From Candidatus Altiarchaeota archaeon (GTDB taxonomy: Archaea > Altiarchaeota > Altiarchaeia > IMC4 > SCGC-AAA252-I15), in NCBI GenBank assembly GCA_043800255.1, contig JAZDNF010000008.1:64001-128000 (forward strand): DNA of 64,000 nucleotides, in the 5' to 3' direction. The notes beneath the pieces are model-generated. The model was not told the origin of the DNA. It saw only the letters and a list, made by a program, of their open reading frames with translations, and made no database searches. The position numbers and the translations under genes are program-made. Within the stretch, counting starts at the first letter, position 1, and the number at the start of each line of letters is the position of its first letter. Below are positions 9,426 through 54,331 of this stretch, piece by piece.

Positions 9426-9503
9426 TGCCCCGGTAGTGTCAGCAGCCTTTTAAGAAAAGGCTGGCGAAAAGAGGATAGAACACTAAAATTGCCCCGGTAG
9501 TGT
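9426..9503 (+). repeat. 14-bp direct repeat of the tRNA-Asp 5' end enclosing a palindromic element
   Basis: TGCCCCGGTAGTGT at 9426-9439 and 9490-9503. Between them, CAGCCTTTT-AAG-AAAAGGCTG-GCGAAAAG (9443-9471). Confidence 0.85.
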
Positions 9504-32282: not shown

Positions 32283-32423
32283 ATGGCACAAGACCAGTTT
32301 GGCAGGGATCTGCACACTACCGTATGCTCTAAGTGCGGGAATGAAGCTCAGGTTCCATTCAAGCCCACAGAAGGCAAACCAGTTTACTGTCGCGACTGCT
32401 TCAGATCGAACAGGCGATTCTAG
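32283..32423 (+). CDS. CxxC-x17-CxxC zinc-ribbon protein, 46 aa (absent from the ORF track)
   Basis: MAQDQFGRDLHTTVCSKCGNEAQVPFKPTEGKPVYCRDCFRSNRRF, with GAGGTGA upstream. Confidence 0.88.
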   Translation: MAQDQFGRDLHTTVCSKCGNEAQVPFKPTEGKPVYCRDCFRSNRRF

Positions 32424-32527
32424 ACTAGGAAATCCCCGAAAAGGATTCCAGACTTCGAGGATTTCTATTCCTCGAACACTATTTTTTTATTCTATTATGT
32501 CTAACATTACTTTCAGATACTGTTCTT

Positions 32528-32623
32528 TCTTGGGGGATGCGGCCGACCTTTGGTCGGGCGCGTGTCGAACCTTTAGGTCGCCACATAGAACAACTTTCTT
32601 TCTTACAAGAAAGAAAGGGGTCT
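32528..32623 (-). other. Hairpin cluster in the tRNA-Ile2 trailer, bounded by a degenerate 3'-end copy
   Basis: CTTTCTTTCTT-GT-AAGAAAGAAAG (near-copy of the intron hairpin) and CGACC-AAA-GGTCG (shared with the Val trailer). Ends in GCCGCATCCCCCAAGA versus the tRNA end GCCGCAGGCCCAAGA. Confidence 0.65.
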
Positions 32624-32757
32624 TGGGCCTGCGGCGATTCGAACGCCGGACCACTCGATCTCTCCAACCTTCTTTCTTTTCGCGAACGTTTTCTTTCTTC
32701 CTAAGAAAGAAAAGGTTCTATGAGTCGAGCGCTCTGACCAGTCTGAGCTACAGGCCC
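32624..32757 (-). tRNA. tRNA with CAT anticodon, probably Ile2, with a 59-nt intron (32660-32718) at 37/38
   Basis: Acceptor GGGCCTG/CAGGCCC, anticodon stem CTCGA/TCGAG, T-loop TTCGAAT. The GGGCC start fits archaeal Ile2 better than initiator or elongator Met. Confidence 0.88.
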
Positions 32758-32908
32758 GTCTTTATTCTTTTTTTATTATTGGGCCATTAAGCGACCGATT
32801 GGGAGCGCATATGGCTCAACCGAGACATCCGTCTCGGTGAGCACGAAGACGAATGTCTTCGTTGCTCCTTTGGCCAGCCTTTAAAAAGGCTGTGAGCTAC
32901 AGGCCCGT
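32744..32908 (-). repeat. 16-bp direct repeat of the tRNA 5' end enclosing a hairpin-rich insert
   Basis: ACGGGCCTGTAGCTCA at 32908-32893 and 32759-32744. The insert starts CAGCCTTTTTAAAGGCTG-GCCAAAG. Confidence 0.88.
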
Positions 32909-32947
32909 TTTGTGGATATAGTATTTGGTGTTTAATAAAAAATACGG

Positions 32948-33160
32948 TCAGCCTTCGATTTTGAGGTTGTCTATCCATTGTCTGACGTCGTCTTCGGTGT
33001 CGCCTTTGGTGCGTTTCATCACCATCTTGTGGAGGTTTGAGAGGAAGTCGAGGTTGTATTCTTCGGCCAGAGGATGGGGGTCAGCGAGGAGGTACTCTGA
33101 GAGTTCTTGGTTTATCCGGTGGTAGAATCTTCTGATTTCTGTGGGGTGGGTTTTGTCCAT
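32948..33160 (-). CDS. Small hypothetical protein
   Basis: 70-aa ORF with ATG start in an intergenic gap. Confidence 0.5.
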   Translation of the reverse strand: MDKTHPTEIRRFYHRINQELSEYLLADPHPLAEEYNLDFLSNLHKMVMKRTKGDTEDDVRQWIDNLKIEG

Positions 33161-42135: not shown

Positions 42136-43434
42136 ATGGAAAAACCGAGGGTAGAAGCCAGCCTGAAGAGGGAGCTCGGCCTGTTCGAGACAACAGCGTA
42201 CGGCATAGGGATAATACTGGGCGCGGGGATATACGTTCTGATAGGGAAGGCTGCGGGAGTCGCCGGAAACTCCGTCTGGCTTTCCTTCATGATAGCGGCC
42301 GTCCTAGCGTCGTTCACGGGATTAAGCTACGCTGAACTGTCATCATTGTTCCAGAAGGATTCCGCAGAATACACCTACACGAAGAAGGCCTTCAGGAACC
42401 CGCTGCTGTCTTTCATGATAGGCTATCTGATAGTCGTGACAGGAGTCGTTGGAACCGCAACCGTCGCGTTAGGGTTCAGCGGATACTTCTCAGCCCTCTT
42501 CCACACGCCCATAATCATGATAGCTATCCTGGCGATAATCCTCTTCTCCATCCTGAACTTTTACGGCATAAAGCAGTCGGCAGAGATTAACGTGATATTC
42601 ACCTTCATAGAGGCCGGCGGCCTCGTGCTCATAATCCTGCTGGGCTTGAACCACATAGGAGAGGTAGACTACTTCGAGATGCCTGCAGGATTCTCCGGCG
42701 TGCTGACAGCATCCGCGCTCATATTCTTCGCCTACATCGGGTTTGAGGACATCGTGAAACTGGGCGAGGAGGTTAAGGACCCGCAGAAGACGCTGCCGAA
42801 GGCCCTCATACTATCGATAATAATAACCACTGTAATCTACATCCTGCTGTCGGTGTCTGTCATCAGCATCATGCCTGCCGATGAGCTGGGGAAATCCGAC
42901 GCGCCGCTTGCCGACGTCGCTGCAAAGGCGATGGGCTCCAAGGCGTTCCTAATCCTTTCGGTGGTGGCATTGTTCTCCACCTCAAACACTGTGCTCATAC
43001 TGCTCATCTCGACCTCGAGGATGCTGTACGGCCTAAGCTGCGAGAGGTGCCTTCCAAAGTACCTGATGAAAGTGCATCCGAAGACGGCGACGCCGTGGCT
43101 TTCAATCATCACCGTGATGGCAGCTGCAGTCGCATTCTCGATGGCAGGCAGCATAGAGTACGTCGCCAATGTGACGAACCTCGGGACTTTTCTAGTCTTC
43201 ACGCTCGTGAACCTGTCGCTGATAAAGCTGAGATACAGCATGCCCGATGCCGAGCGGGGCTTCAAGGTGCCTTTCAACATAGGAAGATTCCCGCTGACGG
43301 CCGGAGTCGGCATCGTTTTCACATTGTTCATGGTAGGACAGTTCACGGCTGACATACTCATTTCTGGAGCAGGTATAATAGGGTTCGGGCTGCTGCTCTA
43401 CGGCGTACTGGGGCAGGTAAGAAAATCAGGATGA
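42136..43434 (+). CDS. APC-family amino acid permease
   Basis: ILGAGIY, YAELSS and FFAYIGFE motifs; about 12 TM helices. Confidence 0.9.
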   Translation: MEKPRVEASLKRELGLFETTAYGIGIILGAGIYVLIGKAAGVAGNSVWLSFMIAAVLASFTGLSYAELSSLFQKDSAEYTYTKKAFRNPLLSFMIGYLIVVTGVVGTATVALGFSGYFSALFHTPIIMIAILAIILFSILNFYGIKQSAEINVIFTFIEAGGLVLIILLGLNHIGEVDYFEMPAGFSGVLTASALIFFAYIGFEDIVKLGEEVKDPQKTLPKALILSIIITTVIYILLSVSVISIMPADELGKSDAPLADVAAKAMGSKAFLILSVVALFSTSNTVLILLISTSRMLYGLSCERCLPKYLMKVHPKTATPWLSIITVMAAAVAFSMAGSIEYVANVTNLGTFLVFTLVNLSLIKLRYSMPDAERGFKVPFNIGRFPLTAGVGIVFTLFMVGQFTADILISGAGIIGFGLLLYGVLGQVRKSG

Positions 43435-44087
43435 GATTCGAACTGCATTCTCACACCAACGTCATCGACGGCCGAAGCACACCAGAGGAAATCGTAAGAG
43501 CCGCCGTCGGCAGGGGATTGGACGGCATAGCCATAACAGACCACGATCAGGTGAGAGGCAACCTGGAGGCGAGAAGATTCGCGCCTGAGGGTTTCACCGT
43601 AATCCCAGGAATCGAACTCTCTGCTAGGGAGGGCCACATAATCTGCCTCGGCAGCATCGACATACCTGAAGACTTTCTGGGGGTGATGAAGAATCCTGAA
43701 AAGCAGAAGCCTGCCTCAGAGATCATTAACCTGATACACGACATCGGAGGGCTGGCGATAGCAGCCCACCCCTATGACCTGATAAGGAACGGCGTCGGAG
43801 ACCTTGTCTACGAGCTGGAGTTCGACGCCATAGAGGTTTTGAACGGCCACACGCTATTGAACAGGAAAAGCCCTGTCAAGGCCGCGAAGAAACTGGGAAT
43901 TCCGATGGTCGGCGGGACGGACGCCCACAACGCATACGAGGTGGGAAACGTGACAGTAGAATGCGGAGCAGACATCCTAGACGAGATAAGGAATGACAAG
44001 GTTAGGATAATATCTGCCAGCAGAGCAAAGCTGGCTGCAGACTTCATGAGATCAGGGATACTGAAGTCGTATTTCAGGTTGGCGTGA
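43431..44087 (+). CDS. PHP-domain metal-dependent phosphoesterase
   Basis: LHSHT, AITDHD, AHPY and GGTDAH motifs. Confidence 0.88.
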   Translation: MRFELHSHTNVIDGRSTPEEIVRAAVGRGLDGIAITDHDQVRGNLEARRFAPEGFTVIPGIELSAREGHIICLGSIDIPEDFLGVMKNPEKQKPASEIINLIHDIGGLAIAAHPYDLIRNGVGDLVYELEFDAIEVLNGHTLLNRKSPVKAAKKLGIPMVGGTDAHNAYEVGNVTVECGADILDEIRNDKVRIISASRAKLAADFMRSGILKSYFRLA

Positions 44088-54250: not shown

Positions 54251-54331
54251 AATGCCAGGGTGGCAGTCAAACCTCGCCTCAAAAAAGGCTCAGACCCGCC
54301 ACCCCAGAAGAATAAAATGCCGGGGTGGCGG
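54251..54331 (+). repeat. Imperfect direct repeat of the tRNA-Ser 5' end plus an antisense copy
   Basis: AATGCCAGGGTGGC (54251-54264) versus AATGCCGGGGTGGC (54316-54329). CCGCCACCCC (54296-54305) is the exact complement of 54322-54331. Confidence 0.75.

Follow-up and report, generated by a model that had tools for sequence, protein, structure and literature searches.

The window, a stretch of 64,000 nucleotides from an archaeal assembly of 1.75 Mb (93% complete), contained on its minus strand an intact tRNA(CAU) gene with a canonical intron, preceded by a row of hairpins and a displaced copy of its own first nucleotides. The gene was missed by the default tRNA scan, which was run without introns and found one tRNA in the window, while the intron-aware scan found six. 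It scored 53.7 bits against the Rfam tRNA model (cut-off 29) over model positions 1-71, and the gene after the stub was thus complete; at the gathering threshold, Rfam reported nothing besides the tRNA across the window. This tRNA(CAU) is probably tRNA-Ile2, since its sequence closely resembled that of tRNA-Ile(GAT) of the genome and the two other CAT tRNAs resembled the initiator and elongator Met tRNAs. The features of the locus were as follows.

32931-32944, minus strand: T/A-rich TATA-like box TATTTTTTATTAAA, at -38 to -25 from G1 of the stub (32906)
32893-32908, minus strand: displaced 5' stub, AC plus tRNA nucleotides 1-14 (GGGCCTGTAGCTCA), first copy of the exact 16-nt repeat
32760-32892, minus strand: interval of 133 nt between the 16-mer copies
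32875-32892, minus strand: hairpin 1, CAGCCTTTTTAAAGGCTG, directly after the stub
32814-32862, minus strand: double-hairpin module, nested in the cassette
32843-32862, minus strand: first hairpin of the double module, ACGAAGAC-ATTC-GTCTTCGT
inside 32814-32842, minus strand: second hairpin of the double module, GCTCA-CCGAGAC-GGAT-GTCTCGG-T-TGAGC
32781-32817, minus strand: terminal stem-loop, GAGCCAT-ATGCGCTC..TCGCTTA-ATGGCCC
32758-32780, minus strand: A-rich spacer AATAATAAAAAAAGAATAAAGAC, without a well-placed TATA box
32744-32759, minus strand: second 16-mer copy, opening the intact tRNA(CAU)
32624-32757, minus strand: intact tRNA(CAU) (aragorn -i; Rfam tRNA)
32719-32757, minus strand: tRNA(CAU) exon 1
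32660-32718, minus strand: tRNA(CAU) canonical intron, 59 nt
32624-32659, minus strand: tRNA(CAU) exon 2
32523-32620, minus strand: tRNA(CAU) 3' trailer, with the TTTCTTT/AAAGAAA hairpin, two more hairpins (one of them CCGACC-AAA-GGTCGG) and then AAGAAAGAA

The 16-mer ACGGGCCTGTAGCTCA, which covers positions -2 to +14 of the tRNA, matched the window exactly twice, both times on the minus strand, and occurred twice in none of 100 dinucleotide-preserving shuffles (mean 0.00). The exact 16-bp duplication of the tRNA 5' end claimed in a preliminary description was thereby confirmed, and the 133-nt length of the interval and its three hairpins agreed with that description. As described there, hairpin 1 directly followed the repeat and two further hairpins lay inside the interval; all were read on the minus strand. 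The cassette of hairpins comprised 112 bases and was joined to a 14-base copy of the tRNA(CAU) start; its last six nucleotides, GGCCCA (including the A that follows the stem-loop), were identical to the 3' end of the tRNA. The interval ended in ...AAAGAATAAAGAC and the sequence before the tRNA-Ser gene at 54318 in ...CAGAAGAATAAAAT, in agreement with the shared ending that had been pointed out. A 63-codon frame overlapping the hairpins was the single ORF across the interval.

The GGCCCA at the end of the cassette would be explained if the upstream unit were a dead second copy of the gene in tandem, with its body lost or overwritten. A piece of 5-7 nt of the 3' acceptor strand was likewise present late in the interval at several tRNA(CAU) loci, and the tRNA-Ile(GAT) locus of the same genome carried three 5' copies of falling completeness, the third one longer, which also fits such a history. 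However, a permissive Rfam search (E up to 10, positions 32300-33100) returned the intact tRNA only, with no partial tRNA in 32760-32892, and the interval held no remnant of a D-, anticodon- or T-arm. The hairpin modules were situated on the stub side of the 3'-like piece rather than beyond it, the cassette was unlike the real trailer of the gene, and the breaks fell in loops at many independent loci. A decayed tandem tRNA gene is thus a very unlikely origin for the unit.

The tRNA genes without a stub in this genome showed a T/A box centred near -35. At the tRNA(CAU) locus, the sole TATA-like box at this usual distance preceded the stub, which upheld the claim that the promoter is aligned with the fragment, while the full copy of the gene was preceded only by an A-run at -23 to -10. 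The box was taken as the original tRNA promoter (P1). Stub and cassette probably now serve as a 5' leader of some length. When the promoter region of a stub-less congener was aligned, it scored 22 against the sequence upstream of the stub and 11 against the interval, and a second comparison gave 16 against 13, all of these being weak alignments. The DNA runs containing the stretch were groundwater metagenomes, and no RNA run was listed as containing positions 32480-32980; in the contigs of four metagenome DNA runs, in which rare variants are dropped by assembly, neither an empty site nor an excision joint was found.

The same arrangement could be read as a gene in which the stub is the true first exon, with the cassette, the spacer and the second copy of nucleotides 1-14 spliced out as a giant intron of the D-loop. 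The repeat ended 2 nt past the self-complementary AGCT, as a central splice helix between the copies requires, and the same was true of the ..GGTT junctions in relatives; yet AGCT and C(C/T)GG are ordinary sequences of the tRNA D-arm. A scan for bulge-helix-bulge motifs ranked the true intron first, with 3 of 4 pairs in the central helix and flanks of 7 and 8 bp, whereas the motif between stub and gene had a full central helix (4 of 4, AGCT with AGCT) and flanks of only 2 and 1 bp. Flanking helices were limited to 0-2 bp here and in nearly all of the 14 own and 9 related repeat pairs: a single own pair reached 3 and 3, and at the repeat end none of the pairs at the 9 related loci reached 2 and 2. 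Homotetrameric splicing endonucleases have strict motif needs, and the genome contained one splicing-endonuclease ORF of 179 residues, a size that suggests the homotetramer type. Given the short flanks in comparison with those of the true intron, together with this single ORF, splicing of the stub onto the gene is unlikely and was rejected for its missing flanking helices; the giant intron as a whole appears extremely improbable. Two related candidates were also set aside. An ordinary bulge-helix-bulge intron did not fit a downstream gene that is complete without the stub and a mature RNA that is uninterrupted, and a split or permuted tRNA gene did not fit an adjacent intact gene with no splice motif between the pieces.

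Our results further showed that the tRNA(CAU) unit is one of a family that spans the genome and the order, which the preliminary description had overlooked. The genome gave 36 tRNA calls, some of them mis-typed, and long introns were present in most of the tRNA genes found; many expected anticodons were absent, and additional tRNA genes may have escaped detection owing to multiple or non-canonical introns, or be located in unassembled DNA. Stubs were measured as the longest exact match of the first 35 nt of each tRNA to its own 300 nt upstream. By this measure, 9 of the 36 tRNA genes had their own 5' end copied exactly (at least 12 nt, within 300 nt upstream), as against 9 of 1260 mismatched pairs of gene and flank, and 4 genes had at least 14 nt of their 3' end repeated downstream, as against 4 of 1260 mismatched pairs. 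Five further tRNA genes had copies of 8-10 nt from position 1. The 5' repeats began between tRNA positions -2 and +2 and ended in the D-loop or the anticodon loop, and 4 of 5 3' repeats started in the T-loop. Across the family, the repeats measured 8-33 nt and the intervals 39-220 nt, none with an integrase or other gene; there was one exception of 1.4 kb. At this exceptional locus (L139, C5:7812-9427), the last 16 nt of a tRNA-Pro(TGG)-like gene recurred 1.4 kb downstream, and the interval held a 236-residue ORF, pseudouridine-synthase-like when its translation was judged by eye, and an apparent 3' piece of a tRNA on the reverse strand. This locus could represent an insertion like the stub-cassette units but of greater size.

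Further members lay in the window itself. The tRNA-Asp(GTC) gene, on the plus strand from 9491 onward, had a copy of its 5' end of 13-14 nt (stub 9427-9439) located 64 nt upstream and followed by the hairpin-1 cassette CAGCAGCCTTTTAAGAAAAGGCTGGCGAAAAG, near-identical to one before a tRNA-Ile in a genome of another family. About 65 nt upstream of the tRNA-Ser gene at 54318 (plus strand, about 54252-54330) lay GCCAGGGTGGC, an 11/12 match to the start of that gene; this stub was followed by a stem-loop of tRNA-like sequence and then AAGAATAAAAT. The aragorn call of a tRNA-Cys with a 1102-nt intron at 42648-43840 on the plus strand is a candidate only.

The genome contained another 206-nt unit, 89% identical to that of tRNA(CAU), at a distance of 54 kb before tRNA-Ile(GAT). 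The cassettes of the two loci were identical at 110 of 112 positions and the spacers at 18 of 23, while the upstream flank could be aligned over about half of its columns. Stub and tRNA alike had A at position 9 at the CAT locus, and alike had G there at the Ile(GAT) locus. The whole unit was covered by a 964-nt contig from a strain about 96% identical, which differed in the spacer and in hairpin 1, there in the loop; the spacer was the most variable part both in this strain and between the two loci. The gene directly upstream of the Ile(GAT) stub (L002; C11, about 42480-42700) ended ...GVSGTIKKARQKWIK and may encode an RNase P protein subunit (Pop5-type), which it resembles.

The hairpins of the cassette were not confined to stub-bearing loci. 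The double hairpin occurred at 7 loci of the genome, 2 of them in canonical introns (Thr-GGT and Gly-GCC) and 5 upstream of tRNA genes. It was also found in relatives, and a scan of genome contigs returned only 2 records outside the genome of the window. One named record with the double hairpin is listed as Altiarchaeota in a passage of PMC8561730, and from the loci they share, the genome of the window probably belongs near this record. The TTTCTTT/AAAGAAA hairpin opened both the intron and the trailer of tRNA(CAU) and had 78 matches on both strands, 52 of which lay in a tRNA gene or at most 300 nt from one; other hairpin types of the tRNA(CAU) trailer also recurred at tRNA flanks. Hairpin 1 belonged to a module in which a short A-rich linker joins an A(A/G)CC hairpin with a T-run to a second stem-loop; the module was found directly 3' of five tRNA 3' ends, three stubs, the SRP RNA and the 5S rRNA (Rfam scores of 132.4 and 77.7 bits, respectively). 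After the SRP RNA (C15:21916-22246) and the 5S rRNA (C16:63862-64004), the two-hairpin trailer AACCTTTTCCAAAGGTTGATCAAATG... followed directly, as it does for tRNA genes; it is a candidate for a shared 3'-end or termination signal of stable RNAs. The terminal stem-loop type was also present in the trailers of Ser-GCT, Arg-GCG and Ala-GGC. By this sharing of modules, the unit reads, in order, as a stub, a standard trailer of stable RNAs in which the double hairpin is nested, the spacer and the gene. Such trailers probably do not stop transcription, since two tRNA genes 90 nt apart had the same trailer type and an A-run between them and no TATA-like box was seen there. Some modules occurred in either orientation relative to the tRNA. 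A loose descriptor of the second stem-loop module gave no excess (47 matches in the genome and 57 in the reversed genome).

A metagenome scan with the hairpin-1 pattern (at least 120 stretches) returned mostly unrelated hairpins, and few of the matches listed adjoined a repeated flank. In relative G027, a hairpin matching ACGAAGACATTCGTCTTCGT exactly, loop included, lay between protein genes and away from any tRNA (L010 and L014), where it sits within a longer inverted repeat. On one metagenome contig (L078, about 2430-2640), the hairpin-1 cassette separated a truncated copy of the first 17 codons of a protein gene from the full gene, which is hydrogenase-small-subunit-like as named by eye. 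Compared by eye, 7 codons were identical, 6 differed synonymously and 4 non-synonymously, with an identical core of 10 nt. Since the copies differed mostly at synonymous sites, the arrival of a homologous gene end from elsewhere explains them better than copying in place.

In the relatives of the order, two copies of a 5' end 40-200 nt apart were found in 9 of 49 genomes, and the reversed pattern in none of the 49. Of the 49 genomes, 27 yielded the tRNA(CAU) locus; its 5' stub was present in 10 and absent in 17 of these, and in an eleventh genome a stub lay at a locus truncated where the contig ends. Five genomes in which the upstream match was a neighbouring, different tRNA were excluded from this count. 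The junction of stub and cassette followed nucleotide 12 in three genomes, nucleotide 14 in the present genome, nucleotides 21-23 in six (including the truncated one) and nucleotides 32-33 in one. The cassettes among the tRNA(CAU) loci were mostly unrelated in sequence and similar in build, and in one genome the stub and cassette were doubled in exact tandem. Position 6 of the tRNA was C in 3 and T in 8 genomes, and the stub agreed with its own tRNA in all 11. In two congeneric species with an alignable cassette, position 6 differed alike in both copies while the flanks barely aligned, and a stem of the cassette showed a compensatory change from G-C to A-T. Decayed stubs were observed as well: that of G008 matched at 20 of 22 positions, and those of G023, G026 and G030 were imperfect.

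These observations bear on whether the RNA of stub and cassette is itself under selection, as a structured 5' leader or a small RNA that is released, its 5' strand imitating the acceptor stem, and acts on the maturation or regulation of its own tRNA. The predicted fold of the stub-cassette leader had an energy of -62.6 kcal/mol (z -6.9), and none of 200 shuffles folded equally well. The conservation of the cassette between the CAT and Ile(GAT) loci beside a more divergent spacer and upstream flank, the agreement of the stub with the tRNA at positions 9 and 6, the compensatory stem change, and the confinement of the changes in the ~96% identical strain to the spacer and a hairpin loop are all in keeping with such a function. 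Against it, more than half of the relatives with the orthologous tRNA had no stub and others had unrelated cassettes, stubs had decayed in some genomes, and some modules occurred in both orientations relative to the tRNA. Moreover, when the stub was paired with the end of the cassette, the resulting closing helix surpassed shuffles (p < 0.06) at only 3 of 22 loci, and such pairing as a general feature was rejected as unsupported. A selected leader RNA seems unlikely to us on this balance.

The preliminary description had proposed an insertion with target duplication. The displaced stub, which is not a second gene, and the structured insert were consistent with this proposal, whereas duplication of the transposon type did not follow from repeats of 8 to 33 nt. 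If a miniature hairpin element had been inserted by an enzyme making widely staggered cuts, both copies would derive from the target, which would explain why the stub equals the tRNA at positions that vary between loci and species; modules that are multi-copy, modular and found in both orientations would be expected as well. But the repeat length was not fixed, one end of the repeat always coincided with the end of the tRNA, which a fixed stagger does not predict, and no terminal inverted repeats were seen by eye. The differences at mostly synonymous sites between the two protein-gene copies of L078 also speak against copies derived from one target. Neither a transposase nor a Cas1-like integrase turned up, and searches of the genome (93% complete) for Cas1, reverse transcriptase (RVT_1), the TnpB zinc-ribbon and Y1_Tnp found none. 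An insertion of this type is, in our view, decidedly unlikely. Since the repeats run from the tRNA end to a loop and measure 8-33 nt, recombination at an attachment site fits them at least as well.

As judged from its sequence, the unit is a member of a family of small, intron- or trailer-like hairpin cassettes accompanied by duplicated tRNA gene ends, and most likely a product of DNA recombination that regenerated the gene. More specifically, there is about an even chance that it records the entry of a small hairpin cassette, mobile or recombining, into the 5' part of the gene, with regeneration of the gene in the process. A short, hairpin-rich cassette, made up of the trailer module with the nested double hairpin and the A-rich spacer, would have recombined into the 5' part of tRNA(CAU) by DNA-level recombination of the attachment-site type, with the crossover in the D-loop and the new 5' end supplied by the incoming DNA. 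The event would have restored a complete gene and left tRNA nucleotides 1-14 as a stub behind the original promoter. The element would measure about 135 bp and lack a recombinase gene, whether from the outset or after reduction. Transcription would run from the old promoter through the stub and cassette, RNase P would free the tRNA from a leader of about 160 nt, and repeated recombination between the copies would keep the stub identical to the tRNA.

Repeats that reach from the gene end to a loop are the expected outcome of attachment-site recombination, and the direct repeat found here was identical to the terminal part of the tRNA and reached the gene end. However, no mobile element with a recombinase lay between the repeats, and the single tyrosine recombinase of the genome (350 residues) was far from the locus, in what appeared by eye to be a defence-type gene island. 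In addition, if loci with unlike bases at position 9 had recombined by a simple attachment-site crossover, stub and gene would no longer match each other, which counts against recombination of this kind as the source of the unit. The gene-less intervals, their small and uniform size and the co-change of stub and tRNA also stand against a simple scar. The co-change, together with a shared cassette carrying a compensatory change, is not how a dead scar should behave, and calls for recombination that still continues, for insertion over and over again, or for selection.

The closest known case is the integration of pTN3-like elements. According to passages of PMC8371274, tyrosine integrases use the dyad-symmetric anticodon and T stem-loops, archaeal attB may extend over the D-loop, and pTN3-like integrases target a tRNA gene's 5' half, and once regenerated this gene is expressed from the element. 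The use of the 5' half is shared with the present locus. In the same passages, the pTN3-like elements are plasmids or viruses whose integrase gene spans the attachment site, whereas the interval here has 133 nt and no gene, is conserved between species, and belongs to an architecture present at a quarter of the tRNA genes of the genome. In Caldiarchaeum subterraneum, a 5' fragment (tRNA-Thr-F) lies upstream of an intact tRNA-Thr-II (Sugahara et al. 2012, PMC3293823), as here, and both cases tie mobile DNA to intron gain and the disruption of tRNA genes. That report describes 1.8 kb with a recombinase gene between the two, at one locus in one population, while the present cassettes have about 40-220 nt, share modules with introns and trailers, and occur at many loci and in many genomes. 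Genomic islands at tRNA genes (Islander, PMC4383910; tRNA gene fragments, PMC9897764) likewise have the regenerated gene and a partial copy at their two ends, and the 3' copies here start in the T-loop like those of classical islands; however, such islands span kilobases (for the archaeal ones in PMC9897764, 9-23 kb of viral DNA) and the inserted DNA here is gene-less. Intron transposition between tRNA genes is reported for Thermoproteales (Fujishima et al. 2010), with related modules in introns of different tRNA genes in a single genome, as seen here, but the present modules also lie outside the mature tRNA, in leaders and trailers, and are accompanied by duplicated gene ends.

Bacterial REP and other miniature palindromic elements are short, multi-copy, modular non-coding hairpins that occur in both orientations. 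Unlike REP elements, the hairpins here are tied to stable-RNA genes and duplicated gene ends, and a search of the genome for a RAYT-type (Y1) transposase came back empty. The literature searched contained no account of stub-cassette units without genes, the supplementary tRNA-fragment tables of PMC3218864 and PMC9897764 lying outside that search, and no paper on tRNA introns in Altiarchaeota was found either.

The origin of archaeal tRNA introns and split tRNA genes is an open question, on which the stub-cassette units may bear. A speculative and rather unlikely extension of the recombination reading is that the units are living intermediates on an unrecognised path of hairpin cassettes into archaeal genes. 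A cassette whose usual place is in a stable-RNA trailer or at the core of an intron would enter a loop of the tRNA, with the gene end duplicated and the gene still functional; loss of the start of the second copy would then yield a non-canonical intron and separation of the parts a split gene, while continuing exchange between the copies, or selection on a leader RNA resembling the acceptor stem, would preserve the stub. One genome here holds the modules in three states, as cores of true introns, as trailers of stable RNAs and as inserts flanked by duplicated tRNA ends, and its relatives show units gained, lost, doubled in tandem and changing together with the tRNA. The stubs and long introns also help to account for the low tRNA counts that standard finders give in such genomes. 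The stub-cassette family thus offers a concrete and testable system for the movement of intron-like cassettes at the DNA level.
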